Of a DNA stretch of 64,000 nucleotides, positions 11,510 to 56,241 are shown piece by piece. This DNA is from Marsupella aquatica (taxonomy: Eukaryota > Plantae > Marchantiophyta): assembly GCA_973895155.1 (NCBI GenBank), contig OZ316892.1:9590283-9654282 (forward strand). Direction: 5' to 3'. Each line of letters starts with the position of its first letter. Position 1 is the first letter of the stretch. The position numbers were made by a program, and so were the translations under genes. The notes beneath the pieces are model-generated. The model ran no database searches, was not told the origin of the DNA, and worked only from the letters and a program-made list of their open reading frames with translations.

Positions 11510-11640
11510 TTTCTATTTAAAAACCCCAAACCCTAAAACCCTAAACCCAAACCTTACTTATTTCTTGTAAACCAAATCCCACACCTTTATTATTTCTTCT
11601 AAACTAATGTAAACCCAAACCTTAGCCTAAACCAACACCA
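11510..11640. promoter_or_regulatory. Telo-box-like (AAACCCTA) degenerate repeats in the region between the divergent genes of CACTA #2
   Basis: aaaccccaaaccctaaaaccctaaacccaaacc and further aaaccc variants. A regulatory role is inferred. Confidence 0.4.
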
Positions 11641-12151
11641 TACATAACCCATTAACCTGAAATCTGCCTAACCCTTCAAACCCGCCTTCAACTATTATCT
11701 AACACCCAAAACATGGCCAAAAAACATTCCAAATATGAGTATAGAGGGGTCCACTTCACCTTTGAAAAAAACCCTTTCAAATGAAACCAACATTCCCCCC
11801 AGGACGAGTTGCCAATGTCTTGCGAAGCCGCTTCCTTCGCAAATACCATCACAAATTAGAATTGAGTTTTGCGAAGCTGCTGCTTTCGCACGACCTTCAG
11901 AAAAATAGAGCCCGAGAGCATTTCTGCGAGAGAGCGAAGGTGTTGCGAAGCCTTTCACGTCGCAATGGTTTCGCAAATTTGAGAAACTACATGCGAAACT
12001 AGAAGGATCGCAACTTGCGAAACGGGTTGCTTCGCAAGTCTTTCCCGCTTGTACTTTTGCACTTGGCCGCGGCGTACTCAGCGGCATTTGACAAATTTCA
12101 AGCGTAGGGAGGGAGAAGGGAGCTTGCGCGCGCTCGGGGGGTGGCTTAGCT

Positions 12152-26842: not shown

Positions 26843-27774
26843 TAACATTATGCTCTTCCCTCAGGTACTGTGCAATGGGAGAATGCGCGACTGTGCAAAA
26901 CTGCAGTCCACAAAATAATGAACTACAGTACAGTCCTCAGTCCATCTTTGAACACGAGCGATTTCGCGCTGAAATCCTCGTTTGATGAAATCCCGCGCTC
27001 GCACATTTTGGGAACATACCAAAGTCCGATTCACAGAATTCGCTCAAGGAAAGGTTCTTTCTCGATTGACACGGCGGCGCACAGAAATGGGATAAATGGA
27101 GAGCTTCCGCACTGCGCATCACCTCCATCGCAAGAGCTGTGCATAACGCTCAACTTGAAACTTGACCCAGTTTGTTTTCCGCTCACTTCCTCCTCAATTT
27201 CAAAGCCACATTCGAGTCAGGGCGGGCGAAATCAATTCGGCCGGGTGTGGCCTAGATTGAAATGTTGTTAGTGTTGCTCTTCTCTTCGCCAGTTCAGAAA
27301 GATTTCATTCGATCGACAGCAGAAAGATTTCAAGATTGAGACGCCTGTGGAAGAATTGGGACATGTAGGAGGGCAATGGCTTGTGGGATTGAGGTGTTTG
27401 GAGAAACTGTAAATGGTGAGCCTTTAGGGCAGTGGCGTCACGTCAAGAGTCTTCTGCATTGGTGTGGAGTGAGCAGCTCAGTTCCGAATTCTGATTAGTA
27501 CTGTACTGTGCAGGACGTCGCAGACTATGAGATTGAGGGGCGGTGGATTGCAGAGGCTGTTTTATCGACGGGAGCGGGAGTACCTTTCAATGTAGGGGCA
27601 GGGAGTTGGAAACCTGCGAAGCAAAACAATAAATGAGATTTAGGGGGAAAACTTGGATAGGTGAAATCCGACGACCGTTGGGGAAGTACCTTCCAATGTA
27701 GGAAAGGGGTTGGAAACCAGCGCAGCAACAAGAGATGAGATTTTGAGGTGGAAGAAGTGGCAGAGGTGAATCCG

Positions 27775-29564
27775 ATGGCGTCGACCGCAGGATCGGCTCC
27801 CATAGCGACAGGATGTTACAAATGTGGTAGAACGGGTCATTGGGGAAAGGATTGTCCCTTGAAACCAGGTGGGACACCAGCCAGTGGGGGTGGGGGTGCG
27901 GGTGGAGCATCAGGTGGATTGAGTGGGGCATCCGGTGGAAGGTTTTCCAATTCAGGCAGATTTAATGGAGAAAATTCGTGGAAAGGGAATTCTTTTCAGG
28001 GTAACGCCAGTCAGGGGAACAAGAGTGTACCGAAGGAGCCTGTAAAAAAGGACCCCAGGAAGAGGCCAAAGTTGACAGCTGACTTGTTGCTTTCGGAAAA
28101 GGGATTGGGATATGTGCTCGAGAAGATGCCCGAGATGGTCACCATCAAAGCTCGTGAGGTGAGCGAGAAGCTCTTGACTCATAGTTTTCGAGGTGCCAGG
28201 ACTGATAACTGAAGAACTTACCTCTCCTGTGCAGAAATTTAATAGACGTGGAGTTGGGATCCTCACCATCTCCCCTGTTTTTTCGTGTGTCAATAATCTG
28301 TCATCTTAATGACATGGCAGGAGACAGTGGTCCGAGACTTGAAGAGTTTGCTTGAGGGCTACATGCACTGGCATTCCCTTCTGCTGCCGTATTTCAGTTT
28401 CGACCAGTTTGTGGAGAAGCTGGAGAGTGTGGGAGCCACTAAACGTGTGCGAGTAAGTGCGCAAACATCTGTTCGGACACTTCATCCAAGTTGTCTTGCC
28501 TATGGATACAATAATTAAGAGTCTAGATTGTAACAGTTCTCGATGATAATTTCGAAATAATTTGGTTATGTAGTTACAGTACGTAGTAGTTCTATCTGAT
28601 GAGCTCCTGGGGATGAAATCATTGCATTGAAGGTTTTTCAGCTTAGTGTTCCATTGTGTTTCATGTGCTCAGGTCTGCCACCGGGAGCTGCGAGATAAGA
28701 TTGTTTATGGTCAAGGATCGACAGGCGATAAGGACGTAGAAGTTGAAGCCAATGAAGGATCTTCTCCACGAGATACCCTTCCGAAGGACACCCCAGGTTG
28801 AGCTTTAGAATAATAGAATTGCCAAAGTTTTTCTACTTGCTGTTTTTCTCCATGAAGGTTTTGGTAGACTTTTTCAGGCAGCGAATTGCTGAGATATATT
28901 CCCCTCAACCAAATCCAGAAGCGCATCGAGCAAAGTAATTTCCCCAGAGTTCAATTTTTCATAGACTGTTTTGTTGTGGTCTATGTCTTTCCATTTTTGG
29001 TTTAAAGAACTTTACCAATATGAATTCGCTGTCTTTTGCAGCCGGTCCTGGGAGTGAGGTGTCCCACGGCCCTGCTGATGACATCTTCACAAATGAGGAG
29101 CCCGACTTGCCAGTGAATGAGGAAGATTTTGAAGACTTTTTCAGGCAGGGTACTGTTGAGGTAATTTCCGCTCAACCAAAACCCAGAACCACCTAGAGCA
29201 AAGAAATTTTCCCACAATGCTTCATTTTCATTGACTCCCTCCTTTCCTACGAAGTCAGTGACTCCATGTGCTGCACTTGCTGTCCACGCTTACTGAATCA
29301 TCTGGTCCCCATGCCGGTTCTCATTGGCAGACATCGGACTCTCATCCGTCCTCGACAATGGGAGGTGGTAGCGCTGCACCCGAACCCCAAAGCAATGGAT
29401 CCCCCGTGAGGAAGTTTCCCTCTTTGGACGATGAGGGTTCAACTATACCGTCAGAGGCCGCCACCAGCATCACCATCAGCGAATCAGCAGCAGTTCGAAT
29501 GGAGGCAAATCGTCTGCAAGCACTAGAGCGTGCCAGAGCTCGTCAGGCTAACGTTCACCTATAG
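27775..29564 (+). CDS. Zinc-knuckle (CCHC) Swi3/TIPIN/Csm3 replication fork protection protein
   Basis: Exons 27775-28158, 28321-28452, 28673-28796, 29042-29160, 29331-29564. CYKCGRTGHWGKDC knuckle. Swi3 domain KRPKLTADLLLSEKGLGYV...DLKSLLEGYMHWHSLLLPYFSFDQFVEKLE. Terminal RMEANRLQALERA motif. Confidence 0.9.
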
Positions 29565-32500
29565 GGGCGGCTCAGAACACTGATTCAGAACGTGTTTTCA
29601 TTTCTGCTGCTTTCTAGTGTGCCTATGCACGTCGTTTGCATTTGCTTAGCCTTCCAGGTCTCATCAGTCAGCATCTTGTAAGCAGAGATGAGAATCAAGC
29701 TGAAACGACTTATTGATTTTTCCTATGTGAGGCCCTCATCCGGATACCAAACTCAACTGGTGGAAATCTGTTTTTTAACTCCAACATCAACATGAGAGCC
29801 ACAATTGCCAAGGCATGTTGTGTGAACTCGTCATGTGTCTGATCTACAATTTATGCAGATCCATGCATGTCTGGGACTCGCTTCCATTTCGGTAGACTGT
29901 CGAGACTTGGTAGACTTGTGAATTCTGTCCCACTGCGTTCCGACTCTCTTTCTTTGAACGATGTGATTTGCTTGACATTTTCTTGAGGCAAAATTTTCCA
30001 AATACATGTTGAGGATTGTCAGGTTGCCACCACTCACAGAAGAGTTAATGTAGACTTAAAAAAACAAGCTCTCGTGGTATAACTGTGCACCAGGAATAGT
30101 CAACTGGAACGGTAGTATACACAAAAGACATGACTGCAGAGTGGTAGTATGGAAAGCAATATACTTCAACCATCCACAATGTTACATTAATAGAAAAACA
30201 TTGTAGTTCATAAGCAATTAAGTCATCAAGTGACCTGTAGAGAGCCACACTGGTACAGCTTGGGATGCCACAGTAGAACAGTTAAGGCTGCGCTAAAGTT
30301 TAGAACAGTGTTTACCTCTTGACTTCTCCATGCGATTTCCGTTTTTCTCGTATACCAGTTGAATCACAGGAAGTTTCTAGGAAATACTCTTGGAAGATAA
30401 GAGTAGACACGACAGGCCCAGTGTGGATGAGTGAGTGATGAGTCAAGATCCTGTACTGTAATTGAAGTCGCCTGGTTTGCACCGCTCTTCCTGAACTCAT
30501 CAAAGCCACATGCAATTGTGCGTACCCGGTTATAGTGGAACAACGGTGAGTTTTGTCGAGCTCGACTTTGCTTGTCGTGCAGCCGAGTTCTCAGGGCACT
30601 GTTACGGACTTGGCCCGTCCCACGGGTCTACTGGTAACCTCAGAGTCACTGTATCTACAGCTTCGTGAAAGTGCGGACCTCATGACACCCGAGATCGGAG
30701 CTGTTTTGGCGCTTGTGGGTCGGTGAAGGGTTGTGCTGACAGAACTTAGATCCCGTGTTAGTGTATAGTTTCTGTCTGTTTTCCGTTCTGTTAGCATGGT
30801 GGACCTCAAATGAAATCCGATTGGAATTTTTCCCTCCGAACAAAGCACTTTTGTAACGAACGGGTTTAGGGACGAAAGAGGCAAGGTATAAAGTGAAGAG
30901 AGCGTGGAATCCTTCTTTTCGCCGTGGACTGGGCTTATAGATACACAGATATAGTATTATCGCCAAGCAGAGAAAGAAATTGTCTACTCGGGTAGCCATG
31001 CGAGAGAGTGGAAAAGTAATTTATGGCATGCAGATATTCTCACCACTCGCCTCGTCGGAGGAGAAATTCATGCATGAGCCGCCGTGTCTTCCGTTACAAG
31101 ACACAAGAAGCTGCTTCATGACATTTGTCTTGACGGAGTGATACTCGAGGCGTGAAGGTACTTTTGGATTGAGAATCGGCCGAGATCGCCAGTTCAAAGA
31201 CAAGTGCCAAAACAGTTTGCATGAACCAGATAAGGGCCAGGCCCAACAGTGGACCAGGATGGCTGACAAAAGAATATCACCTCCTTGGAGACTCTTGTGA
31301 ATGACCAATTCGAGAGAGACCGTTTTCTTCAATGGTTAGGTCAACTGCAATTGATATTCAGTTCTCTATGGTCCATACCCTCTCCTTCTGTTACAACACA
31401 TTCCACGACAAAGCCGAGTGCCCCGCTTGTACAGATCCATTGAACAGAATTGCATTGGCTGGTGCCCGAGAAGGTCGAACAAGATCGAATGATTTGAGAA
31501 TTGAGATTAATCCCGTGTGGGGAGGGATGTCGGCGCTGCTCGAAGTGTTGCTATGGTATTGGGCAGTCTCGGTGTGCTTTACTGCTACAGGGGAAACTAA
31601 AAAGAGTGTCCCGGGATTGCAAAGAAGGTCGTGGCAGTATGACATTGCAGACCATTTCGACCAGAGATCGTCGCGGATTTCTCAAGAATTCAATACAGGT
31701 TGGCCAGTCGTCTACGGGAGTGAGGGGAATGACAGTGGAGGGTGAGATAGCAAAACCAAAAACACTGAAAGTGAAACAATTGAAAGAGATGGACGAGATG
31801 GGTTGTTCAGAGCTCAGAGCCTTGGTGTCTCCATATGTCTCGTCGGTCAGGTTGGGGAAGCAGAGCTCTAGTGGGGCCAACAATCAATCTTCAACGATTC
31901 CACGCAATGTAGCCGCGATGACTCCCATCCAGATCCACACAGTAATCAGGTTGGACTGTACAGGAAACCCAAACCTTTGTACGCAATTTTATCATCGACT
32001 AAAACAAATGCGGAATGACATCCCCATAAAAATGGAAGAGGTCAGGGAACCTGTCCAATGGAGCATAACATAAACCTCGAAAGAACTAAAGAATACGGCA
32101 CACATTGAACAAAATTTCTCGGGGTAAAAGCTCTCGAATCTTGTGCTGACGATGCAGATCATGTTGTACGACGGGCTTCGACATTCTGTTACCAACTCTG
32201 GAGTCTCGGAATAGGGGAGGACTGAGGACAACAGGAGCATCACCATGGATAACAAATCTCGTGAACTTTCCGGTGATCTGCTCCAAAAGTCTATGATGCT
32301 GCTAGAGGAGCAGAGCTGGAGCTAAAGGTGATTCTCTGGACTGTGGATATCGTGCTTTCGATGGAAAGCATTGGAGAGCTCAATCCTTCGACAATGAGTA
32401 GAACTTTGCAAGTACGTCGTACCGTACCTCAAAGTTCAACCTCGACTCTAAATTCCTGCACAATTAGTACTGCAAAGTTCATTCTCCACTCTAATTTTGT

Positions 32501-33701
32501 GCACAGTAGAGCTATACATAGAGTGGATGAAACCAGATGAGTTGTGGAACCATTTTAAGAGGTACCTGCTATTCTCCTAATCTCCTAATCTCCTAATCTC
32601 TTGTCCCAAAGAACCTTTTCTCAGACAATAATGACACACTATAATGGAGGTCAGGGCAGGGGTTCCTGTTCCAAGAAAACTCTAAAAAAAGTTTCCTGCT
32701 ACCATTGATCAGGTTTTCCTCACTTGTTGGTAATAGGTGCTCTAAGAAAGCTCAGAAAGGCTTCCCAGTTGCAGCCTGTCAAGTTTTCCTCGAGGGCTGC
32801 AAGCTAGTAAACCCAGACCAGACCGCCATTAAGCTATACATTTCTATCCTGGATCTCTAATTTCCTGCACAATAGAGTTATACATAGAGTGGCTGACACC
32901 AGATGAGTGGTCAACATTTTTAGTCTAGTACAGGGTGGCTCACTGCTTGACTTTAGATTCTAAACCCTTTGTATGTAGCTGGCCCTAAGCAATTTAGCTC
33001 TTCAAACTCCCTCAATTTCTGGGATAAAGCCTCGAGTGCAGGAACACGGGATCGTCCAGTCTTTGGGATCATCCAGTCTTTGTTTTAAGGTCGGGAGGGA
33101 ACATGGGACCATCTTGTCTTCATTTTGAAAAGGTCAGGACTTACATTTGCCAAGCTTGTCCTTGGTTTTCCACTTACAAGCATTGTCCTTGAAACAAAAT
33201 TTAGTGGATCCAGGTTATCATAATTAGTAAAAAATGTTCTTAGGAAAGTGAAAATTTTGCCCTCCCCAACCTGGTGGACACTAGTACTTTAAGAAACTGT
33301 TGAGCCTTGCAGAAAAAGGTGTTTTCAGGCACTAAATCTCCTTCAGTAATATGCTGCCTAAGAATCAAGTTAGGCCTCAAATTGAAGGGCTGCATACTCT
33401 TTTGCTTAGAAAACAGAGGTGTCAATCAAGCCCGTTTGCTTATCATCTAACATTTTATCGTACCAAATGTGTGTCTAGGCTAATCCAGAATTTTGCCATT
33501 GCCTAGCAGAAAAGAACAAGCTGCTAGAGAATCAGTTTACTAGGGCTGCAAATTAGAAGGTGGCATACATGCAAAACAACTCTCTTAAGTAGTATGCTGC
33601 CAGAAAATCAACTTAGGGCTGCAAATTGAAGGGCAAGACACTCAAGTTCTTCCTCAGGTAGGAAAATAATTGTGCAAACCTGATAAGCCCGGTAGTCACC
33701 G

Positions 33702-33899
33702 CTTTGCTTCTCCCTTGACAACATAAGAAAAACAAATTCAAGGGAAAACCACTTTGCTTCTTCCTTGACAAAATAAGGAAAACATATTCGAGGGAAAACC
33801 ACTTTGCTTCTCCCTTGACAAAATAAGAAAAAGAAATTCAAGGGGGGGAAACCACTTTACTGCTCCCTTGACAAAGAAAAACAAATTCAAGGGAAAACA
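33702..33899. repeat. Tandem array of 4 x ~50-bp units, each with an internal inverted repeat
   Basis: Units at 33702, 33752, 33802, ~33855: ctttgcttcTCCCTTGAcaa..aagaaaaacaaatTCAAGGGAaaacca. Confidence 0.85.
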
Positions 33900-35175
33900 T
33901 AATACGAAAACTTTTGATAACCCCGAGACAGGGCCCCAGTACAAAAAGATCCACTGCAAGTGATGTTTCTCGGTTTGACTAAATGCATTTCCAGGACAAA
34001 AATAATAATAAAAGAAGGATCCCGTCGCCAGAATCTCCACCCTGACCGAGAGTGGCTAACTCGACCCGATATACCTGCCCGGATATAATAAGCGCACAAG
34101 ATGCTTTCCCAAAGCCATCCCAGGCCGTAGATCGAAATGGCTTCATGATCTGGGTGGGGCAGGGCCCGGGGCAGAACATGCTGTTATCCTGCCCGGTGCC
34201 CACCATACGTGCATTATTAGTGACATGGAAGTTGCCAATCAGAAATTCAAAGTTCTGCCACGTAGTACTCTGACTGTGAGCATGAGATTGGGTCAGTGGG
34301 CCATAATTATAACACGATACAGTCAATGCAAAAGTCGGTATATTCAACAATATTTGGCAATTTAAAAAACAATAAATATATATGTATATTGTAATACCCT
34401 GGAACCAAGCATTATGGCCATGCCTCTCTGGAAAATAGTACTTTAGCTCTAGTTTTGAGGGCCTACTTTGGAAGAATTTGCTTGATGGATTCTCATAAAG
34501 GAATTGTTATTTGATGAGACTCTTGAGATTTTGGATCCCTTGATTTAAGGTCTATCAATGGTCTAGATCACTGAAGGATCTCATCAAGTAACAATTTTCA
34601 TTTTGGGTGTCCATCAAGCATATGCCTTCCTCTTATTGTCCATAATGGACTAACTTACATCGAAAGGCCTCAAAGATTTTATTTTTTCACTGTTTTGTGT
34701 CAAAAGATAAAGGAGATGTTTCACAATGTCTCGATCCAAATTTGGAGTGTGCACTGTTCTCTGCAAAGAACCAAACAGTACAAAGAGAAAATCCAAAAGG
34801 GCACTAAGGTTGGAACTTGAAGCCCAATTGTACATATTGCAAAGGACTGGTGCAATTAGTCTAATATAAGTATATGTCTACCACCAGTGCTATGTTGACC
34901 AAACCCAATAAGGTTCAACAAAAAAGACAACCCCAATGGGCTACTCTAACACTTCATTTCTGACCTTAGTGGGTTTTTTGTTACTGGATCTATATATGAA
35001 CTGTTGTATAGAACATTGTCTGAATTCCTGGGTTCTCCAAGACACAATGATTAGCATCTAAGGGTGTATCTGTCAGGAAATACTAAAAAACTCTGTTTCT
35101 ATTGGGCTTGCTTTTTGACATATTATCTTTGCTATATACAACAACCTAAAAAACGACAACCTTTTATGTATATGC

Positions 35176-35292
35176 TTATGGTCCCTCAGTGCCCCTTAAT
35201 GGGGTATTGGGGTCGACCATATGCCGACCCGCGGGAGCAGGGAGGTGTACGGGAGACCCCATACCCCATTAAGGGGCACAAAGGGACCCTAA
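35176..35292. repeat. 117-bp hairpin element (~38-bp stem) flanked by the 6-bp direct repeat ATATGC
   Basis: ttatggtccctcagtgccccttaatggggtattggggtc pairs with gaccccataccccattaaggggcacaaagggaccctaa. ATATGC at 35170-35175 and 35293-35298. Confidence 0.9.
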
Positions 35293-36119
35293 ATATGCGT
35301 TAAGGGTCGTACGGAGAAATATAAACGGCCCAGATTGAAAGGCGCGCATCCTACAGCCTGTGTGTCCGCCACCGTTCCCGTCTCTACATGCCATCTCGGC
35401 CCTCCATTCAAATTGAAGGGCCCAGATGAATTTGAGAGTGTACCTTCAGCTTACCACCCTGCGCGGCTGTCGGCTCTGCTCTTCCCGCGGAGAATCTGGG
35501 CCCTCCATGCAGGATCACACTCCTCCAAGAAAATCATGGCCCTCCATTCTGACGTCAGTCTCTAGGTGCATCTTGGCCCTCCATAGAGGGTTTCTCTTCC
35601 CGCGGCCAATCTTCACCCTCCATTCAAGGTCCTCAACCCGCGGCCAATCTCAGCCCTCTATTCAAAACTAAACGGTTTCAAATGACATCCAACGGTGCAA
35701 AGTGTTAGGGTTTAGGGCGTTGGTGGATCGTCATCCAACGGTCAACCCAGAATGGACGGCCCAGATTTCAGTGGACCAGTCGGTGATTCTGGGGCGGGCA
35801 TTACTTAGTCTGCAAAGAGTGATTCAGCATCTCACTTTTTGGAGATGTCGTCAGGCTGCAAGTTTGTCTCCGCAGCGTTGGGTGTGCGCTTGTGAAGCTG
35901 CGAGGGACTGGGTGCGGGCCGGGGTGTGCGCTTTGGCAATCTACTGCGGGCGAATGGGTGCGGGCTGCCGGTTGGAGTTTGTCAGCTTGCGCGAATGCGA
36001 GTGGATGAACTGGTTTTTACTGTTCATTGGGAGTGCGATCTCAGCTTCGAAGTTGTCTGGTTTTTCTGTCGACTACATTTGGATGTATACTGCGCTATTA
36101 TATTTGAATGTCTTTTGAT

Positions 36120-36240
36120 AGCTTCTGTTGAATCAGTTGAATGCCCGGTTGAATGCCGCATTATGCAGAATCAGTCAAATGTTGTTTTATGTAGAATCAG
36201 TCGAATGCCGCTTTATGCAGAATCAGTCGAATGCTCAATG
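36120..36240. repeat. Short degenerate tandem repeats (gaatcagtcgaatgc)
   Basis: Four to five copies of gaatcagt(c/t)(g/a)aatg. Confidence 0.7.
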
Positions 36241-36833
36241 CTTATGCTTATGGTCGTGATTCACTCTATCACAGTTCAGGCTTAAGAACTGATTTGGTTG
36301 TTGGTATTTTTCATGTTCAGGATTTTAATTCTCCCTCGAGCCTCCTTCTCGAGATTTCATTGTAAGTTGAGGTAATTTTGGTTTGCGTAGCTACGAACGC
36401 CAGCGGTTATTGTAGGAGAACAAGAGGCTCGATGTGCGACTGATCATTATTCTGAACGTCTCCCGCTCAAATATCTGTAGAATGCTCGTTGAAGCCATAA
36501 TCGATCGAAGGCTCAGACATGCCAGGTTTACCCGAAGTACTAACATACTTCTTAGCTTCCTGCAGTTTTCTGTGTATTGACGTTGCGGTTGAAGGCTCAT
36601 CAAAATGTCGCCAAAACTATCCCGAGGTTTGTTGCCCATTTTCTTGCATTTGTTGTTGTTTTCACTCGTGGTAAGCCGCTTCTTTGTCGCCATTTGTCTC
36701 CATAAGATCGTCTTCTGCCACTAAGCTGTACAGCCGGTCAAGGCTTCGTTTCGGCTCACTGAACGATTTTCTTACGTTGAAACCAGACTTGGACAAGGAT
36801 CAAGGACCATCATTCAGTCTCGGAATCTCGGTA

Positions 36834-38547
36834 ATGGCATCCGATGGGGCAGTCGCTGGCGGAACAATCTTTGATCTAGTAGGCGAAACTTCATCCGGTG
36901 CCTATTCTTGCTCAGTTTCAGAATCAGACATCCATAATCTGAATTGGGACCCGGATGTTATTGCACTTGAGTATTTGATTTCGCAGCAGCTCACAGTGAA
37001 TCTTCCAAACGGAACTTCTTGTGAGCTCTTACCTGAAGATGCAGAGTTTCAGCGGACCCTTTCCGAGGGTGGTAGTAATCCGAGTGCTGCAGTTGATCGA
37101 TGGGCTGCAAATCGGCTTAGTAAGTTCCGTGAGTTTAAAGGGTGGAACGCTACACTTCCGTTCATGGAAATGCCTGGCCGAGACTGTGTGATGCTATTGA
37201 CAAAGTTCTTTGAACAGGTTTGCAAGAAGGATGGTAAGCTTTATCCCTCACAGACCTTGATGGGTCTTTACCGTGCGTTTCACCGTATTTTGCGGAAGAA
37301 ACAGGAGAAGCGTGTGGTTGAGACAGGTAAGGAAGAGCGAGTGTTTGACATGCGATCTTCACCTCTCTTCAAGCCAGTGGCTGTGGCTTGTGTGTTAGCA
37401 ATGGAGTGTTCGAAGAAGGCAGGCGCTAATGTGCCGAGGAAGAAAGCCTCTGTCATTACTTTTGCAGATGAGGCCACCATATTGGCCCATTCAAGTACCT
37501 CTGTCTCACACTCGCGAGGCCTACAGAGGAGGGCAGTTTTCTTTTTACTGAATCGGTTTTGTATTCATGGCGGTAAAGAACTGTATAATCTTATGAAGGC
37601 TGACTTTATCTTTGCAACTGATGTGCATGGTGATTTTGTGAAGTACGACGAGCGCCTTAGCAAGAACTATAGAGTGAGTATGGATCGATATCAGGAGGAG
37701 CATTTCAGACCTGCTGTGATTAACTATGACCTTGATGTGGTAAATACATTTCGGATGTTAATACATCATTTGCCTGTAAGTGCAACATTTCTGTTTTACC
37801 AATGCATTGACCACCCGCGGACGCATGCATGGTACTCAACGTCGAGACTTGGTGAGAAGACCCTTGGCTCTTGTCTGAAAGTGTTGCATCAAGAGGCTGG
37901 TCTCGGTATTGATGGTGTCTCTAACAAAACTGGACGCACCACTTGTATCTCTCGGATGGGAGCTGAGGGTGTTCCACCAAAGGTTGGGATGAAGATCTCA
38001 GGACACAAAAGCAAGGGTGCGTATGAGAGGTATGACCGCAACACAGAGGCTAAAGTGCAAGCTGCACTCAGATGTGCCTCGGACGGGACTGCTTATCCTG
38101 AGACAATGACTTTGGAGACAACAAAGGGCAAGAGGGCACTTATTGATGGCGAGAAGCGCGAAGATGTGTCTGGGGCTACTGTTTCTGTAGTGGATGAGCC
38201 ACTGCCTAAGAAACTGAAGGACGGAACCAAGTTGCTTGCTTCTGAAGGTAATAAAGTAGGTTGACTTGTTCATGCATACTTTTGCTTGGTTCTTTAATAA
38301 TTGAATATAACTTCTTCTTTTTCTTGTCTCGGTGAGTGCAGGTGCTGATTCTGCAGAGTCCAGCTTGCCTTCTGTGATAGAAGTGGAGCCCACTCTCCTT
38401 CAGCCAGTAGTCGAGCCGGTTATGGAGGTGTCGGCTAGTGAAGAAGTTGTCACACCAGCTGTGAACTTTGAGCTTGTGGCACCTGCTGCTGAACGGGGCC
38501 TGAGCACAGTGGACAATGATCTTTCGACGTGTTTTGTGGAAGAGTAA
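36834..38547 (+). CDS. Tyrosine recombinase, DUF3504/Crypton type (ZMYM/KCTD1/QRICH1-related domain), probably mutated
   Basis: LLTKFFEQVCKKDGKLYPSQTL..LYRAFHRIL; RFCIHGGKELYNL (catalytic R position reads H, CAT at 37566); SKN; WYSTSRLGEKTL; SNKTGRTT; KISGHKS....ERY. Phase-1 intron 38248-38341. First ATG at 36834 within ORF 36684..38264. The TAA at 38545 may be premature, since an NCTMNGCSF motif follows at ~38700 in another frame. Confidence 0.85.
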
Positions 38548-40299
38548 AAGGATACTGACTTAGATGTTTTCTTTGAGTCCATGGATTGGGATGCTTTAAG
38601 TTGTTCGGACCCAAGATTTAAGGGCATTGCTCGCCTGCCAAATATAGCCATTGTTAATCCAGTAATGAATACTGTTTTGAAAATATTAAGGCATTGACGA
38701 ATTGCACCATGAATGGCTGCAGTTTCAGCCTCAACTTTGGTCCTCATGGAGGGGGACCCCCGAGAGGTGGAGAGGGAGGAGGACCATCCTCTGGACTGTC
38801 ATTAAACATATGAGGCATTATTGGCAGTAAACTAGGCACATATTAGCCTGTGAGGCATTGTAGATAGAGTTAGCATTCATAGATTGTAGATACTTATAGA
38901 CAACACTTCCATATTCTAGATTACACTAGACGTTGGATTGGTGCCAGTGTATAGAAGGACATTCTTTCGACAATTAATTGTTGTCAAGAACTGCCTTCTG
39001 GGCATTCTCATTTTTCTGACTCTCTAGAGTCACTTCACTGTAACTCTTGATTTACATATGAATAAAGTTTTATTCCCCGCCGTGGGATTCTCCCTTCTGA
39101 ATTACTTGCGTATCCATAAATGTTGGGCGTATAAATACACCCCAAATACGACCATAAATAATGAAATATAAAGCTGCCTACATGGCAAGCTCTGGTAAGC
39201 CGAGAGGCATTAAAATAACCCCACGACCGTTAACGTAATATCTAATGTGAACAAACAGCATACACCCTTGGAGATGCGCTTAGCAAGTTCTACTTCAAAC
39301 ACACGAAGTGACATTGGCCACTTTGGCCCATAAGGGAAAAATGGAAAAAAAATCTTAAAACATACACTGCCCGCTCCCCCATCATTGCCGATTCACCGAT
39401 GGGGAGGGGAACGGGCCGACGGGGCAGAGGCAAGCAAGCCGCAAACGGCATCCGGGACTGCGGATAATCTTGCCTGCCCGTGGATTCCGGGCTGCGGCAA
39501 TGTGGACGCAGGAGGTTGGACCGTTGGACGTTGACGGCAGGCTCTGACGGTGTATATATAACGCGTAGTTCCCGCGGCATGGAGTGATAAGGGACCCACC
39601 AGCGTTCTGAGTTTTTGTCTTTTTGACCATCCCCGAATCGCATTCCTCTCGGTTGCCCGTGCCCGTGCCCGTGCCTCTGGAGAATGGCATGCCTTGGGGC
39701 AGACAGTGGATACACGGGCATCTGCTACGGACTCATCATGCAATGGCCACCCCATGGCATGCCATGTCAGGTGGAATCTGCTTCATGCCTTCGTGTCCGT
39801 TGGGGCCGTACAACCGTAATCGGGAGTCATCGTACCACCGGGAGATTTGGTCATTTGCCTTTTGGTACATTTTTTTCCCTCCTATAGTAACCCCTTTCTT
39901 GTGCCTTTTTCCTTGCCTCGAAAGGCGCACTTTAGGCCCAACTCGCATGTCAATAGGCCCTTTGTTTTGGTGTCCTCCGTTTCAAACATGGCATAAAAAA
40001 TATGCATGGAAAGTATTGTGGAGATACCCCATAGTCCGCAGGGATTATGCCCTAAAAGTTGCACAACCAAGGGCAAGGGCCAGAAAACTTCCAGCCCTTG
40101 CAGATCCCGTCTTTTGCATTCCATATCAAACAGAATGTCCTGCATAGTCTGTAGTGAGCAATGAAAGAGAGGGAATCTAGGGCAAAAACAAGATCTACTT
40201 TTCCCAAATAGTTTGCAAGTGCTTAGGGCCAACTGCTTCAGGGCTACATACATGCAAGTTGGGTATTAGTCATAAGAAATGTAAAACCCAATAAAACAG

Positions 40300-42351
40300 G
40301 TCAAGGACAAAAAACTGATGAGGACCATACACATTTGGTCATGAGGGTGAAACGCGTAACAGGTACACGGAACAGAACCTAGTAACTCCCACACAAGAAA
40401 AAGTAAAGATCTGTCGTAAACATGAGAGGAGACTCAATCTCCAGTGGAAGAAATCCAGCAAAAACTTAGATCTTAGACACTAAACCCCAGACAAAGATCC
40501 ACAGAAAGGACACTTATAAGCGTTTGGATAGAGGGGAAAATGGAGCAAGCTTATTGAGAAATTGCACATCAAAATATAACATGAAACCAGGAGACAAAGG
40601 TCCTCGGAGTGATTGGTTTGTATATAGTAAGTCCTTGGGCACTGTGGGCTATAAGAGCACTCCCACCAGTTGTGCCCAACCAGGAGTGAGTCTAGTGAGA
40701 CCAGTCTGTGGGCCCAGTTTCTTACTAACCACTGAATTCCAGTAAGCACACATTCATGCAACACAGCCCCCCAAGACTAATTGAAGACTGTGGTCATCCT
40801 TCTCACTTCTGATCAAATGTCTCTGGAGCTTCTCTAGCGAGTGCACTTGACATTCAAACCATAGTGGCAGTTTTGGGTGAGTATGAAAGGCAGGAAGGCT
40901 AGGGAAGCTCATCCCAAAACTAAATGTTTTGGTGCCTTGTCAGCTCTCAAAACTCCCCGATGGCGTTTGGTGTGCACCTGTGGGAGTCGTCTAATGCCCC
41001 CCCATAATGAGGGGTTTATGGTTGCTGTCCATGATCACTTGTGACTTTTATTCACTAAAGAAAACTAGACACTCACTTCTAATTCTAAAGATGGACTCCA
41101 GACCAAACTTCTCTTAGATGAATTTAAATAAATGAAAATCCCTTGAATGAAGGAACCAAAGTTTATAAATGTGTGGAACAAATCTCCATCTTGATCTCAA
41201 ATTCTAGACTATAAAAGTACTCCACATCATCATTTACATGGGCCCACTACTTGCAATGCAGATAAGTAGACACCATACCTAAATGGGCCCCAGTTCTGGA
41301 CAAGACAAGCCAATTGTAACCGGTATCACTCATTACATGGTCCAGATCACTTAAATCTTAAAGTGAATAGACATAAGAAATTGGCCCCAAGGTCTTGCAT
41401 GTAAAGTCATCATCAGCTCAAGTTTTGAGGGTCTATTCTCCTCATTCATGCCCACGTCTTAAACAGAAAGTGTTTCATTACTTTTGGGTTTTTCTCTTTT
41501 CTTTAGCCTTGAAGACAAACCCCAATTTCATACAAATTCAGATTCTGAGAATGACCAGTGTAGATTTTAGCACAAATTTAGTAAGTTGCCAATTTTAAAT
41601 TTATTCAAAACTTTGCCACTCTTTTCTGTCACTTATTAAGTTCTCACGTGGACAATTAACCCAACTCATTCGACGGTCAAGAACACACACCGTGCATTTC
41701 CTTGAAGCTAACTTGGCTTAAACGAGGCTCAATTCAAACTCAGCCAATTCCACATTCAAACCCCTCCAATTGTTTTTCCAGTTGAATCTCCCATCCTGCT
41801 TGTCATATTCTCTTCTCAACACAAAACTAGTTCACAAAGAAACGGTAAAACAGCTTTTAAGTACTTTGCCACTAAAGTTGTCTTGAATATATATATATAT
41901 AGGGCTGGAAAAGGACTGTGGGAGGGACACTGTTGTTTCAATCCAAAACTTTCCTGAAAGTTAGCAATGCCCGAGCAAGTTTGCCATTTACTGATTCTAT
42001 CGTAACTGTTGAGTAAATGACCGTTACTCATTAGACATGTGCAACATTTAACAAACATAAGCATTCAAAATGGGACTCAAGTGGGTCACCTCACAAGAGG
42101 CCACGTCCACGAGAACACACAAGATAACCTTATTGAGCTCTAATACCAATTAGTCTCCACAGACTAAGCTCTCTCTATCTCTCAATTGTTTCCGTAACAA
42201 TGAACCATGGTTCCACTCACTAACTCAGTCCTGCTAGTGATGGGGCTAATGAATATAGTAGTAACACATCTAACCCTAACCAAGCACTTGACCATGGTTA
42301 GTCTAATTGTGGTTACATGTTAACTCTAGACCAAAGACAACATGCCTAACA
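40300..42351 (-). mobile_element. Highly decayed LTR retrotransposon remnants (probably Ty3/gypsy, possibly two elements)
   Basis: Minus-strand tRNA-iMet-type PBS TGGTATTAGAGC at 42148-42137 following a ~200-bp TGTT-starting segment (42351-42151). Minus-strand PPT-like TTGGGGGGCTG followed by TGTTG at ~40774-40759. The two putative LTRs do not match well and no intact ORF remains. The left boundary is approximate. Confidence 0.45.
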
Positions 42352-42685
42352 CTGACCTCTTGCAATAGACATTGGGCCAAAATGTCAGCCAAATATTGAA
42401 AAATGCTGCGGAAAACCCAATACCGAGTCCAATACAGTGACAACATTTGACAGAATCACTAACATAATCTTTGAGAAAAATAGAGGGAGACAAGTGTGGC
42501 AACATTTGTAATGTTCAGTTCTTTACTACATTACCACTATTGTTGCCTGGAATTACAATACCACTGTTAGTTTTAGTATTTAGAATACTGCCATGGTTCT
42601 TGGATATGGCTACCTTGATGAACTGGTATTCAATGTAACCTTCTTTGTTGTATTGTATCTACAATGTAAAACCGTGGCAGTACCA

Positions 42686-42858
42686 TAAATATTAAGAAGA
42701 ATACAGTGCAATATTGTAATTCAAGATAACTTTAGTGGCAAAGTATTTAAAAGTTCCTAAATATTAAGAAGAATACAATGCAATATTGTAATTCAAGACA
42801 ACTTTAGTGGCAAAGTATTTAAAAGTTCCTAAATATTAAGAAGAATACAATGCAATAT
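42686..42858. repeat. Tandem repeat, 2.4 x 72 bp, with an inverted partial copy at ~41854-41889
   Basis: taaatattaagaagaatac...aagttcc restarts at 42686, 42758 and 42830. Confidence 0.85.
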
Positions 42859-45800
42859 CAAAATTGTCTTGAATGACAATATCAAAATGAGAAACAAACT
42901 CACATTTGTGTGAAGAAAGATTTATCCAAAAATTACAATTTGTGTTTGTGAATTTTTTAGGGCTGCAACCTTGAGCTGGAGGTGGAGGTGGAGGTAGGTA
43001 CTGGAGTGTGCAGGAGAGGTATTGGAGGTAGGAATAGTGGTAAGCTGCCAAGAATGCCATTTTGCGTCGAGCTGGGAAGCTGTCACTGTGTTCCTTGGAA
43101 AATTATCAAAAGTGAATGAGTTAGGGAAAGCCTTTCAGGAAAGGTTTTTGAGTTTAGGGTTCCTCTGGCATTCATTCAGGTGAACTCCCAACAAGATGGG
43201 CTCTACAGGGTTTTGAGGATAGGAGTTTTCTAAATAAAACCTGTCTTCAGCAATTTTATGCTAGACAGCATTGCGGGGACTTTTCATTTTTAATGAGTGA
43301 GCATTGAAATTTCATTCAGGCAACTAAGATCAGTTTTTATTTTTTGAAAAAGTCCTACATCTTTTGTGGATTTATGTTTTTATGTTTGTCAAAAAGCTCA
43401 CAAAAACCCACGGAAAACTAGGGGGACCAAAAAGGCAACAACTTTAAGAATCCAAAAGCCGGCAAAGCAAGTTAAATCTAATCAGTAAAGAGAATGAGAG
43501 GATGAGCAACCCTAAAACAAAAAGGGTCTAAAAAGCCTACACAACAGGAAAGCCAAAGGACTAAAGCAAGAAGAGGGTTGGGTGGATCAAACCCAAAAAG
43601 ACCCAAAGTGACAGGTAACAGTCCGAGTAAGCAAAATCTAAGTGGATTCAGGCTTAGAGCAGTCCTCGTGTCATATAAACTAAATAAGCCTAACTAAGTA
43701 TCCTTCTTCCCAGCCTGAAAGAATATAAATGGCTCTAAGGCCCAACTTGCATGTGAAGGGTCCTTCCAAAAATGGCCCTCAACTTGAGTAGTGTGCTGAT
43801 ATGAATGAGTGAGACTCATCTGGTAGTACCCCCTCATGCACCAGGCCTGACGGTATAGATTGTGGGGTCCCAAGGGCAAGGACCATAAAGTTTCCAGCCC
43901 TTGCAGGTCCCGACCCTTTGCAAAGAATGAACACTTATTGCAAAATCTTTCATAATTGAAAAGCAGAGAACCAGATTTGTGTCAAATGGACTGTCATGGA
44001 AGCGCTACATTCCTTGAAAGTAGCGTGAGCTGAAAGGGCCTCATGCTTGAGGGTTGTCACATGCGAGTTGGCCCTAAGAGCGACTTCCAACAATAAGCTG
44101 TGAATCAGGGCAGGACAGCTAGCATGAAAGCCATGGATTATTGATTAGAAATAATTGTGGATTATGCAAGTCTGTGTAACATTTTGTCCACAGTGTCCAC
44201 ACTTCTATCAGCCTGCCCATCATTTTGTGGACTGTTGCCTGAAAATAGTCCCCATATAAACACGAAACAAGTATGACCTTTCTTGAGAGATTTTCTTGGT
44301 GGCACCCCAAACCAAAAACTCAACCAGACCCCAAAAGTATGTTGTAATGGGTTCATGGGCCAAAATCAAGCACTATTGTCCTGTGAACCTTTTAGACCCA
44401 TTGGGAGTCTCACGAGGAAGGGTTACCCAGGATGCCCTGTGTTTTTGCAAGCAAAATGTCTGGCCCCATTGGACCCAATGTTGAGACATTGCACTAGACA
44501 CTTCACTAGCATTTTGGGAGAGGGTTTAGGGTGCTCTGAAGCTGCAATGTGCTGCGGGGATATGATCGTTTGTGCTTCCATTTAGGGCTATACATAGGCA
44601 GAGCAGGGGGCAGATTCGCTACTGGTCAGCTCCATGTAAGCTTCTACTTGGAGTGTTGAGCCAGATAAACATGGGGGTGCACCCCCAAAAAAATTCAAGA
44701 AGGAAAACCAGTGGGACAAAGAGAACACAAAATCCCAGGTTACCTTCTTTAGTACCTCCCTTGTTGCTTCTTAGGTCTGGCCTCTTCAACTTGTGTCACT
44801 TTAAGTACAAGTGAACAAAGTCGAATATCTGGCCGGACCTGTTTATTAGGGTGTCTCAAAGTTCCAAAGTTCCTGGTCACTAACTCATGAGTTACTGGTT
44901 ATCTACAGAACCCTTATGGACTTTGGAATCAGTGAACATCTAAAACTAATTGTTCTTAACAGACATTGATAAAACATGGCCCCTAAGGAAGCTTCACAGG
45001 TTGGGTACAAAAAACGCAAAGATAAAAAATGTCACCTTCAGGACGATGAGAATAGTTACACCTTAGATGTTATAGCCAGATCCTCCTTACCCAACTCAAG
45101 AATTGACATGCCCTCAACTAGTAAACAACAGGAGACAACGGCTGAAGAGACTCCCTAGGCTAAGTTCCATCTATAACCAACCTCCCCAAAAGTTAAAAAA
45201 ATAGCTCAACAGACCCCCACATCTGCACTAAATGTATTGTTCCCCTACTGTACTAATTAAGTATAAAATGATACTGCTAAATCCCACCAGTGTGCAAATT
45301 CGCAGCAGATTTGGTTATATCACCTAGGGCTTCCCACTGGAGTAGGTAGCTTTGGACCTAAATGGGCAGGACTATGCTCAAGAAACCTCAAGGTGGCTTT
45401 AGAGTATGTGGGGCCACCTGAGAATAATTTGGACCATATCATTCATGAGTAACTCAGGGGCCCATTCAGAAGTAACGGAGGGCCCATTCAGGTATGGGGT
45501 GTCCACCAATCTTACATGGCCAGCATTGGGCCCAAGTAAATGGAGTGTGGTACTCTCTTGAGGCCGAGCGCTTATTTTGTCTATAATCTTAGACTATTAA
45601 TTTCAAGAAGTGGTCCAAATATTTTCCAAACTTTGGCTCCGTCATTCAAGGGCTGAAGAAACACCACTTTATCAGAAAGGGTGAAATAAAGTACAATGCA
45701 ATAAAAGTAAACGAGGTATTTAGATGACGAACACTTGACTCCAGAAAAAAGGGCAAATGCAAAATCCCAAAAACCTAGAAAGAGGAAAAAATAGAGACAA

Positions 45801-51779: not shown

Positions 51780-54700
51780 ATGTCGCAGGCACTGTGTCCC
51801 TACTGCAGTGCCTCGGAAGGGCGCTGTGTGGTGCTCGGTGGAGGCCGCTTCCTCACCGAATGTAGGTCATGTGGGCGTGTTATGGAAGAGCGGCTTAGCG
51901 AGGTACACCGTTCCCCTCCACCCTGAGCTCGTCCTCTCGGATGATCATCATTACAAAGTTCTTGATTTGGAAAAAGCTCTCGATCGCATCTGAATTTGTC
52001 CCTGGTGGTTACTCATGGATAGTGGTACACCCGGTTGTCCTGCACGTCATCATTCACCCTACCAGTGCTCGAGTGACCCATCATCAAAGCTACCCAGATA
52101 ATCATAGCAACAAAGCCTGGAGCTACCCTTTCGATACTTGGTCGTGAAATTCAGTCTCAGGAACAATTTTCTGTATCACTCTTGTGGAATTTTTTTGGTA
52201 CTCCTTTGTGGCGAATGATGACCTACAATTTCCCGGTTAGATTTAATAGTTCTTTCTCAGTGTGAAACCAGACGCCATGGTACGACCTCTGCAAGGTTGG
52301 ATTCTCCATGAGAAAACTCCTTTTCCTGCCGTGAGCTCTGCCTGGGATTGCTATTCGGAGTTGGCATTATCGATTTCAGGACCCTGACAGATGCGTAGAC
52401 AAACTTGCTGAATAACAGGACGATCCAGTAATCTGCGAGAGCACTGTAGCAGAATTCCTTCATCCCAGTATTTGATGTCTGTCGTAATCGGATGAAGATT
52501 CGAATGCAAAGTAGCCCTTCTTGTAGGCCTGACGATCATGATGCGGGGCGAGATGTTTTGTCTCTTTGGGAAATGTCTGCAGCAGCAAATTAGTTTCGTA
52601 CCTTGTAAATTTATGTGCTCAAGTAGGAACAAGGTGGATGTTGAATTGACGGCGTAGAGATGTACCGTGCGCTTTTCTAAATCCACCGTTGCTCTCTTAC
52701 AGGTAGACGAACTATTTATTGAGAGGGCGCACGACGCTCCGTTGTGCATAGTAACCCCGGATTTCAGTGAGAATGAGTCTTACAAGGCACCTCCCATTGA
52801 GGATGACCCCTTCGAGAGTATCGGATTCATTACTGCCTTTTCGACGTGGTCGCTTGAGCAATGCCCCCTATTCACGGCCACAAGCACTAGTTACAGTGGG
52901 CAGTTGGCAGAGTTGGAGAGGTTACTGTCAGATTCACTCTATTCGGGTGGAGGTGCGGTGGCCACGAGTTTAGCCGGGGCGAGCATGAGCACGGTCGATA
53001 CGTTGAGAGCCTATTTTCAAATCGTCGAAGTGTCCTCAGTGTTGGGTTTGGAAAGAGATAGCTGTGACCATGCCATCCAGCTTTTCAGAGACTGTTTATC
53101 AACGACCTATCTCAGGAATCGTAACATTGAGGCCCTTGCGACTGCTGCTCTGGTGCAAGCGACAAGGGAGCAACAGGAACCTCGTACTTTACAGGTCTGT
53201 CGTTCGTTCTTATTCTGGACCTTCTCATTCCAGACGCAAGCCTCTTGAGTTTACAATTTGGTTGTTTAACGGCATTACCTACTCGATTAGCATGGTATAC
53301 ATGACCCGGAGATTCTGTAAGCCACCAAGTTTCTTAGCATGTCGATCGGATGAAATTCATGTACACGGGCTTCGATCGCTCTTGGTCAAGGATTCTCCAG
53401 TTCGAGTCATTCTGAGCAAGGTTTGGAACCACCTCTTGATGTTGCAATCAGGTTTACATTTTTGACTTGCTCGTTTATCTTTTGCAGGAAATTTCAACTG
53501 CAGCCAACATTCCACCGAAAGAAATCGCGAGGCACATGAAGGTGCTTTCTGACGCGTTGAAGCTCAGCCAACCCATCAATAGCAACTCCATTTCTGTGCA
53601 CATGCCGCGCTTTTGTAATCTTCTACAACTCAGCAAGACCACACAGGTAGAAACATGTGCGTATGGCTCTTTTGAAGGGCATGGCCCTCTTTGTTCATTC
53701 GGCTAGGATGAGACTGTTTGTTGGAGTGTTAAGCTAGATCCTTCTTATCGAGCTCTGTCAATGAGCATATCGAACTCTGCGGAATTCTTTGCACACAAGG
53801 GGAATCTGTAGCTATTCCATCAATTTTGGTCATAGATATCCTTCACCAAGAGCCATATATCTAGGTCACAGTGTAGAAGCCGGACTGCTTCACTCTAGAA
53901 GCGATTTTCTGCCTGACGGATGAGCTTCAGTACTTGTAGGGCTAATTTAGCTACTTTGTCAAGGAAACGAATGGAGACTATTTGTTGCTCAAGTGAAAAC
54001 AAATCTTTGATTATCGAGACTGAAAGACCGTCATTTCTGCGTCTTTGTTGTCAGGACCTTGCAACTCATATAGGAGAGGTGGTGATTAATAAGAGCTTCT
54101 GCACGAGGAGAAATCCGATCAGCATATCTGCTGCAGCTATCTATTTATCTTGCCAACTTGAGGATAAACGGAAGACTCAAACGGAGATCTGTAAAGCAAC
54201 CGGTCTGACGGAGGTTCGCCCCGTTTCCATGTTCATCCTAGAATGTACCTTTGACTTGAGTTGTAGCAGTGTGAAGCATGTATCTGGAATGTCTGACATC
54301 ACGGAATGACGAGTAAATTGGAAGTCTCTTTCATCCGTGCTCTGTCTGGGTGCGGATTAGCAACTCACCGTCTGGGAACTTCTCTTGGCGAGTTTGAGTA
54401 CTGTTTGAAGTTCAGATCGTAAGGCGTCACCATTGACCTTGTCTCTTCCTTTGCCAATACTGCAGGTTACTCTGCGTAAGGTATACAAGGAGCTGTTGGA
54501 AAATCTTGATGATCTGTTGCCTGCTGATTATACTCCAGCAGTCCCTCTAGAGAAGGCATTCCCAGTAACAGCTGCGGCACTGGGCCGTGTTCATGTCGCT
54601 CGAGCAGCAGCCGGTGTTGCCATGTCCGAGCCATCACTTCCCACCACACCTTACAACTCAGCAGTGAGCAATATGAGTGCTGGTATAGCTGGTGATACAA

Positions 54701-56241
54701 GCAGTGTAGTAGGGGGTTCGGTAGGAAGTTCCCCCGCACAATCCAACATGATTCGCGTTCCTGTGTCAGGCGGATCTGCCACAGACAGGGCCACAGTAGG
54801 AGTTACTTCATATAGAGGTTCCACTCCCCCAAATTCTGATGGGAGACCTGGAGTACCTTTGTTTACTGTACCTTTCAGTTCAATTGGAATCACCGGGGGG
54901 GAGGGTGTAGACAGAACACGGCTTGATGTGTCGAAGGAGATCGAGAGGGATCGCAGTGAACAACGGGAGAGGGACAAGGAAAGGGAACGAGATAGGATGG
55001 ATACGGATTATCCACCTCAAAAGAAAGCGAATATGATGCCTCCTGCTTCGCTTCCGCCAGGCTTTCGACCGTCTTTCTTTCCATTTGCTCAAGTAGATCC
55101 ACGAATTTTTCAGGAAATGAATCCGGGACTCTGGCCAGTACATTTGTATGGCGCACCTGCTATGAGGCCTGCTGAAGAGGGCACAACGTCAGCTCGAGGG
55201 AATGATAGGTCTCGGGAAGATGCAGCAGGGAACCAGGCCTTGCCCAATTCTAAACTGCCCCCCCAACAATATGTCAGTTTCATTCCAGGGATGCCAGAGG
55301 GCTTAAATCCCAACATGCAAGTCAAGATGCTTCAGCTAATGCAAGGAAGGCCGCCGGAAGGAGTTGAAAGGCAGCAAGGTGGTACATTTGAGAGGGACAA
55401 CAGGGAGTCTGAAAGGGATAGAGATCACGAGGGAGAGGCTGGCGAAAATGGGAGTCACGCCTTACCGGTATCTTCAACAAATCCAGCAGCAACTCTCCAA
55501 GCATTTGCTGCAGCCGCTGCTGCTGCTGCTGCCTCGGGGAGACAAGGACCCCCAGTCTTTGCTGGTATTCCGCCAGGATTGTGGCCGTTTCTTAGTGCAG
55601 GAGGTCCTGGTCCATATGGGATGTTCCCTCCCCAAATGGTGCAAGCACAAGGTGGTGGAGGTCTGCCACAGGGGCTTCGCCATGGAGAGCATTATACTGG
55701 TGGGGTCTCAGAAAAGAGTTTGGAAGGTCTACCACAGGGACTCCTGGCCTCAGCTGGAGCAGAAGCTTTATCGAGGATGGGAGGAGGACATGGAGCGGTA
55801 GCTGGTCAACCTGGTGGCCTTGGAGGGCAACCGGGTCATCTACCTATGCCGTGGCCAGGTGCACCATTCCACCCCCTGTTCCTTCCTGCCACTATGAATG
55901 TGGGTCCTGGTCCTGGTCCAGGTCCAGCCAGCGGCATGAGCAATGGAATAATCAGCGACTCGTCAAATGGAATGATGAAAAGAGATGGAAGTGGTGGCAG
56001 TGATGGTAATGCTAGACTTGCAGCATCTGGAGCAGGAATGAATCTGTCACAACGACCTGTAACGGACATGTTTCCCATGCTCGGCATGACCCCGGGGAGT
56101 CATGGAACCCAAGACCCTCCTGGACACCCTCCTAACACTGCTCAACGTGCTGACAACGGTGAAGCAACCACCACCTCGGTGGCCATGACAAACCAACAAC
56201 CTTCGTTTGAAAGACAAGCTCCTCATGAAAGACAGCACTGA
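51780..56241 (+). CDS. PBRP1: Plant-specific TFIIB-related protein 1 (pBrp), ~902 aa
   Basis: Exons 51780-51902, 52703-53194, 53488-53646, 54055-54213, 54466-56241 (2709 nt, all phase 0). Zn ribbon CPYC...TECRSCGRVMEER; DPFE.IGFITAFSTWSLE; cyclin folds RNRNIEALATAALVQA...EPRTLQE and FCTRRNPISISAAAIYL..QLEDKRKTQ.EICK.TGLTEVTLRKVYKELL. Confidence 0.95.

Follow-up and report, generated by a model that had tools for sequence, protein, structure and literature searches.

A damaged repeat of probable Crypton type in the liverwort Marsupella aquatica, and a likely land-plant branch of DUF3504-related tyrosine recombinases

The window analyzed here is a stretch of 64,000 nucleotides from the liverwort Marsupella aquatica (contig OZ316892.1, positions 9,590,283 to 9,654,282), and it carries a repeated element of about 4.1 kb (approximately 35153-39245, + strand; all positions refer to the window) that contains a gene for a tyrosine recombinase (YR). 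We consider it quite probable that this element is a damaged copy of a Crypton-type DNA transposon, from an old land-plant branch related to DUF3504/CryptonA. The YR lies in a stop-free frame of 529 codons (36675-38264, +), with homology from approximately 36807 and a core at 37080-38090, and all motifs that a first-pass annotation had named from the sequence are present, among them F..V.KKDG..Y...TL (KKDG at 37224-37235); SGHKS and AYERY are also found in this frame. The annotation had attributed the first of these motifs to an N-terminal DUF3504-type region; KKDG sits instead in the N-terminal core-binding domain, which Pfam assigns to QRICH1 PF25561 in distant relatives, and not in DUF3504 proper. 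The first in-frame ATG (36834) lies downstream of the point where homology starts, which makes a further 5' exon likely, and a short PSF.L motif near the N-terminus (36807-36824) recurs in the otherwise variable leaders of 11 relatives.

The recombinase core has no intron, and the gene, described earlier as intron-containing, is so only in its tail, where one intron is predicted from splice signals (38248-38341, +; GT at 38248 to AG at 38341, with a pyrimidine tract). The predicted last exon (38342-38813, +) is interrupted by a stop codon at 38545 and a frameshift of one base at 38674, both private to the window copy, as other copies in the sequencing runs carry neither. This exon holds DWD..VNP and NC..N.C.F motifs like those in the tail of relative P0002 (E 0.024, a weak match), and tblastn of all relative proteins gave no convincing match outside the YR core.

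Inspection of the active site showed that the first catalytic position is His (CAT, 37566-37568, +, in the context CIHGG). By alignment, Arg occupies this position in 55 of the 71 relatives that span the column, so that the His of the window copy is best read as damage. The remainder of the catalytic block (37923-38033, +) comprises N-K-T-G-R (37923-37937, with K at 37926 and R at 37935), G-H (H at 38004) and Tyr (38031-38033), the nucleophile by alignment. The R-H-R-Y tetrad is incomplete here and reads H-K-R-Y, the family pattern being R-K-R-Y; R, K, R, H and Y are retained in most relatives. The earlier proposal that the copy is likely inactive is supported by the Arg of the relatives and by the broken tail.

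The Lys is a feature of the family. With the distant and domesticated sets put aside, pairwise alignment shows it in place of the His of H-x-x-R in 60 of the 70 remaining proteins that cover the column, and the His is kept in 29 of 30 proteins of the distant set; these plant-type and distant sets were drawn by the analyst, partly on that very motif, and many of their members are fragments. It is for this reason that the split in the tree described below serves as the independent check of a K-x-x-R lineage, in agreement with the suggestion that KTGR marks one. SSV1-type integrases show the same R..KXXR..Y arrangement, and catalytic work has been reported on them (PMC8371274). As these integrases are active with KXXR, the family need not be dead on account of its Lys.

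In the AlphaFold model of 37080-38090 (mean predicted local distance difference test score, pLDDT, 88.7), the window protein is a tyrosine recombinase of the Cre/XerA fold, with a core-binding and a catalytic domain. Cre was the best Foldseek match (E 2.3e-7), and structure alignment gave Z scores of 17.6 for XerA (root-mean-square deviation, rmsd, 10.7; 252 aligned) and 17.5 for Cre (rmsd 12.4; 289 aligned). A protelomerase-like role, suggested by the Lys together with the hairpin at the left end of the element, was considered and set aside, the Z score for TelA being 8.3 (rmsd 13.6, 263 aligned) versus approximately 17.5 for Cre and XerA.

An exhaustive search at E<=0.001 returned 702 proteins, with a listing of the best 150, and 30 were looked up by name, of which 16 are from land plants and 3 from marine animals, the nearest named non-plant relatives. 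The land plants are Calypogeia, Riccia, Marchantia, Ceratodon, Selaginella, Diphasiastrum and two Adiantum species; Cryptomeria and a Calypogeia protein with 60% identity came from a later search. Among the relatives looked up by name there was no alga, hornwort or angiosperm, most of the 702 matches lying outside the look-up. Identity to the window protein is 37-60% for relatives from seed-free plants and about 22-29% for animal-type ones. Pattern scans found no relative in metagenome contigs (0/93 and 0/67 stretches), viral contigs (0/89) or prokaryote genomes (0/57), this method being sensitive to close relatives alone, and a weak search for longer relatives of 1435-4095 amino acids found none.

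The link to DUF3504 comes from several directions. Of the 22 distant-type proteins among 50 relatives scanned, 21 lie above the DUF3504 cut-off; a profile of the six closest proteins matched a profile of 23 distant ones with a probability of 100% (E 8.5e-46 over 333 columns), and QRICH1 was the best sequence match in the PDB (E 2.2e-13). DUF3504 clusters rank first in the Atlas (0.97-0.98), the top three having DUF3504 in 49-74% of their members, with fungal, diatom and ALOG-YR clusters close behind (0.96-0.97); with scores this close to equal (0.96-0.98), the Atlas separates these groups poorly. Altogether 38 relatives match 8 Pfam families, and ALOG, DUF3435 and GCR1_C are absent from these. 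UniRef labels one Marchantia protein as DUF3504 and one Selaginella protein as Tyr recombinase.

The main tree had 33 rows, chosen by leaving out near-duplicates and isoforms as well as short fragments, the chimeric P0121 and most of the distant rows. In it, a branch supported at 100/99 sets the 25 plant-type rows apart from the rest; a quick tree of 44 rows agrees. Both were built from search matches and hold no CryptonF/S/V, DIRS, Starship or Glomhopper rows. The clade spans liverworts, a moss, lycophytes and ferns, and is separated from the animal-type rows by a long branch. Calypogeia and Diphasiastrum each occur in more than one of its subgroups, indicating that several subfamilies are old. 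It is thus likely that these proteins form a land-plant K-x-x-R branch of DUF3504-related Cryptons, either sister to CryptonA or within it. Of the two origins proposed earlier for such a lineage, ancient or horizontally acquired, the tree fits the ancient one better and a recent horizontal gain less well, and there may have been an old transfer into early land plants.

Six proteins, P0040, P0044 (Selaginella), P0056 (Diphasiastrum), P0192 (Cryptomeria), P0174 and P0191, combine a PAXX head, a coiled coil and a dead YR from which the catalytic residues are missing. Their N-terminal domain matches PDB 8p26, titled Arabidopsis thaliana PAXX, both by hidden Markov model (HMM; E 2.5e-12) and by Foldseek (E 5.5e-6, from a low-confidence model with mean pLDDT 45), and the Atlas places it with XRCC4/XLF/PAXX folds. 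Plant PAXX binds Ku and XRCC4 (10.1101/2023.05.26.542399). The fusions form one clade (100/100) nested within the plant clade, with the lycophytes apart from the conifer branch, and P0056 and P0192 are 49% identical over 527 columns. A single nested clade points to one capture before the split of lycophytes and seed plants, which sets a minimum age for the family; going by plant divergence times, the likely domesticated gene would be more than 400 million years old. On these sequence grounds, the PAXX-recombinase fusion is likely an ancient domestication and a host gene of vascular plants. A candidate for a second domestication is Mp5g04240 (P0017) of Marchantia, which is 95% identical to P0181 of M. 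paleacea, that is, between two Marchantia species; the K-x-x-R and G-H motifs are altered, and UniRef gives Mp5g04240 the label DUF3504.

Sequencing runs were then used to assess whether the window element is repeated. Five runs contain the stretch, and four of these (X1-X4, from two studies) were compared over 30000-44000; one of them, X2, possibly comes from the sample used for the assembly. In this run, 30000-34917 and 39186-41876 are each spanned by one contig, with 0 differences and a depth of 15-16, while depth in nine bins over 35137-39339 is 45-187, that is, 3-12x the flank depth, a summed contig depth that is not a copy number. The same bins are raised in X1, X3 and X4. Contigs over the element show identities of approximately 86-99%, and at most 10 contigs per run share the same alternative letter. 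The coding part and the non-coding 5' and 3' parts are repeated together, and the right flank is single-copy; no second copy was found within the window. A stretch of about 4.1 kb that is repeated and diverged between single-copy near flanks has the pattern of a dispersed element and not of a host gene, and we conclude that it is a dispersed repeat. The annotation had weighed a single-copy syntenic host gene and contaminant sequence as alternatives; the first does not agree with diverged copies of the stretch, nor the second with single-copy flanks that adjoin the element with 0 differences in a run of the same genotype.

The statement that no reverse transcriptase (RT) lies nearby is also supported. 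Among 115 stop-to-stop frames of at least 45 amino acids in 32-43 kb, a single one had a Pfam match at E<=0.01, the YR itself, and no RT, RNase H or other domain was found in this window copy. The sole RT match in the window is a Copia-type fragment (RVT_2, 2414-3187) 33 kb away. As far as one copy can tell, the association with RT/RNase H that had been raised as a contrary possibility is thus lacking.

The ends of the element were placed from the depth bins, the start of an X2 contig and the start of a palindrome, and lie within approximately 35153-35176 on the left and 39215-39245 on the right. The single-copy contig of X2 begins at 39186, which under a 31-letter assembly would mean that 39185-39215 is shared with another locus. 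The Crypton-like transposon first placed at 35170..39163 is confirmed as a repeated YR element, but the shared sequence would reach at least 39215, past the right boundary given. The left end is occupied by an imperfect palindrome of 158 bp (35153-35310), whose inner arms (35176-35211 and 35257-35292) are 36 bp long and match at 89%. Its DNA fold has an energy of -50.4 kcal/mol (z -7.65), and 0 of 200 shuffles were as stable; a hairpin at the right end was not significant (z -0.96), and no Rfam match was found. On either side of the inner palindrome stands the same direct repeat of 6 bp (35170-35175 and 35293-35298), which may follow from the palindrome itself; 35176-35292 may be a separate mini-element flanked by this repeat, but the outer arms can equally well be those of a decayed longer palindrome.

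Within the right arm of this palindrome, 35283-35310 is a candidate recombinase site, a dyad of 11 bp + 6 bp spacer + 11 bp with 8 of 11 arm positions complementary, a layout that is also that of dif sites as described in PMC8371274. Five degenerate subterminal tandem repeats of 37-39 bp (family D2) follow at 35479-35669 (+), and the left-end motif recurs internally at 36242-36257 (+), sharing 13 identical bp with 35171-35183; this copy ends a degenerate 26-bp repeat and may be due to chance. At the right end, half-site R1 (39148-39158, +) is inverted with respect to the left-end motif and ranks 5 in the window by a matrix made from three left half-sites, and half-site R2 (39223-39235, +; rank 19 for 39223) is complementary to 35298-35310 at 12 of 13 positions. 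R2-type 13-mers occur at 7 loci in the window, and 0.018 would be expected in a 160-bp zone that was picked afterwards; both end motif and zone were chosen after inspection, and other sites in the window score equally. R1, R2 and the left half-sites are therefore candidate binding sites only. Two further repeats lie to the left of the element: one at 34888-35146, copies of which show internal deletions and duplications in the runs, and a hairpin-shaped one at 34476-34623, of very high depth in all four runs, which is probably a miniature inverted-repeat transposable element.

The features above were compared with those of the known YR elements. The YR is the sole mobilizing enzyme found in the element, a Crypton feature recorded here for the window copy. 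GCR1_C, characteristic of CryptonF, has no match in the window frames or in the 38 relatives, and of the features of CryptonS, a conserved C-terminal region and direct-repeat termini of TATGG, TATGG is present in the end motif but in an inverted arrangement. The RT-RNase H of DIRS, Ngaro and ALOG-YR elements was not found in the frames of 32-43 kb, and the window also departs from Starships, with no DUF3435 among the matched families and single-copy DNA resuming about 1 kb after the frame. By analogy with the Crypton model, an intact recombinase would bind a short motif repeated at both ends and cut by means of its tyrosine; the element would be released as a circle and inserted at a similar site, with the family K-x-x-R substituting for H-x-x-R as in SSV1 integrases. 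Circle excision and insertion follow the Goodwin model as given in PMC3212892, and excision and site-specific insertion of CryptonF have been seen in Chlamydomonas (PMC9977147). With His in place of the first catalytic Arg, and with a broken tail, the window copy would depend on enzyme supplied by another copy.

Several observations weigh against this assignment. The window protein matches both families proposed for a HMMER check, PF00589 (E 0.003-0.006) and PF12012 (E 0.04-0.12), but reaches neither cut-off, so that it is homologues, profiles and fold that carry the family assignment; within the plant clade, DUF3504 is matched at E<=0.1 by only 11 of 38 proteins, with one (P0079) above the cut-off. 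Movement of the element is a proposal drawn from the Crypton model, and none of the 15 joints listed among 78 was an empty site. Long terminal inverted repeats were sought and rejected, as 160 of 1000 shuffles and 331 of 931 random window segments scored as high, and no short terminal direct repeat, such as the 4-6 bp ones that mark Cryptons in place of a target-site duplication, could be pinned down at the ends. The left end abuts the repeat at approximately 34888-35146, which blurs the boundary. To these points can be added the selection of the rows in the trees and the nature of the summed depth, both noted above.

Alternatively, the YR gene could be a remnant or passenger of a DIRS/Ngaro-type retrotransposon that lacks RT, or of a larger cargo element, spread by other enzymes. 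In keeping with this, the element ends are only approximate, a terminal hairpin with inverted motifs is atypical of Cryptons as described in PMC3212892, ALOG-YR clusters score 0.96 in the Atlas, and one of the 50 relatives scanned, P0046, joins a YR to an RT domain. We nevertheless regard it as improbable, given the frames without RT, RNase H or any other domain over 11 kb and the 8 Pfam families of the 38 relatives, which include neither ALOG, DUF3435 nor GCR1_C. The structural match to ALOG is weak (Z 5.8, rmsd 4.2, 101 aligned), and P0046 can be read as a gene model that has run into a neighbouring long terminal repeat (LTR) element. A non-mobile family of domesticated host genes with several paralogues, like QRICH1 or ZMYM, would account for the missing first Arg and for the domesticated members in the same clade; it is very unlikely in view of the private stop and frameshift, of the non-coding 5' and 3' parts repeated with the gene, and of catalytic residues that are kept in most relatives and lost in the conserved, host-like members. 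A fungal or animal origin by recent horizontal transfer, or contaminant DNA, can be given as little weight: marine animals are the nearest named non-plant relatives and DUF3504 Glomhoppers occur in Glomeromycota that live as symbionts with bryophytes (PMC13465315), but relatives from six seed-free plant genera are far closer than animal-type ones, a fusion gene that lycophytes have in common with a conifer sits within the clade, the single-copy flanks match the runs, and the pattern scan, which detects close relatives only, found none in prokaryote, viral or metagenome contigs.

A Crypton-type transposon of an old land-plant branch thus remains our reading of the element. A broader proposal, which we put forward tentatively and hold a little less readily than its opposite, is that land plants own an ancient K-x-x-R Crypton group that predates the split of bryophytes and vascular plants, that has been recently mobile in this genome and that uses palindromic, loxP/dif-like end sites. 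It would have been domesticated at least twice, in Marchantia (Mp5g04240) and in the ancestor of vascular plants, where the PAXX fusion would tether an end-joining scaffold to a dead recombinase that grips DNA, a plant parallel to QRICH1/ZMYM.

Elsewhere in the window, a decayed CACTA-type element at 6026-13000 (Transposase_21, E 6e-38; DUF4216) includes a frame with a SET domain (9686-10510, E 7.7e-6), and at 41854-42825 lies a repeat that has terminal inverted repeats of 35 bp and contains a tandem duplication. A zinc-knuckle plus weak Swi3 exon is found at 27739-28212, and a TFIIB-repeat gene with a long low-complexity tail at 52658-56241.

In the literature that was searched, which excluded Repbase, Dfam, subscription journals and supplements, we found no description of land-plant Cryptons or DUF3504 elements, nor of the PAXX fusion; repeat tables of genome papers may list plant 'Crypton' fractions. 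DUF3504 is called widespread in Opisthokonta in a 2026 paper, the available part of which names no plant element (PMC13465315). Cryptons are described, in the parts of the literature at hand, from fungi, stramenopiles, animals and algae, so a land-plant branch adds a new host at the kingdom level. Its own active-site signature offers a search profile for repeats missed by Pfam, and its recombinase, plant-native and presumably site-specific, could be tested on the candidate sites. In the likely domesticated gene a repair factor is linked to the DNA-binding fold of a transposon, and the gene is open to knockout in seed-free model plants.

The closest known system is CryptonA/DUF3504 of animals (Kojima and Jurka 2011, PMC3212892), with which the window element shares a single YR, the lack of RT and homology across the core-binding and catalytic domains; in both groups no folded C-terminal domain is detected and a short NC..N tail motif is present. 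It differs in having K-x-x-R in place of H-x-x-R, in forming a separate clade on a long branch and in its land-plant hosts, and animal Cryptons were found in that paper to have no terminal repeats, whereas here a left-end palindrome and inverted end motifs are seen. Glomhoppers, a CryptonA subfamily of Glomeromycota (PMC13465315), are likened by description, none being identified among the matches: they too have a DUF3504-type YR, intron-bearing copies, a repeat-rich setting and ill-defined ends, but keep the catalytic His and live in fungal hosts. CryptonF-1_cRei of Chlamydomonas (PMC9977147) is likewise a YR DNA transposon of the green lineage, although it carries GCR1_C and its host is a green alga. 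The domesticated DUF3504 genes QRICH1, ZMYM2-4, KCTD1 and KIAA1958 provide the model of a dead YR as host gene for the PAXX fusion and Mp5g04240; the window copy, in contrast, is a decayed repeat, and in plants the dead YR was joined, independently, to a PAXX head. Lastly, the archaeal SSV1-type integrases (PMC8371274) share the R..KXXR..Y variant of the active site, but they are viral and show only a distant likeness in fold (Z 7.7, rmsd 3.5, 131 aligned), and the Lys common to both is probably convergent.

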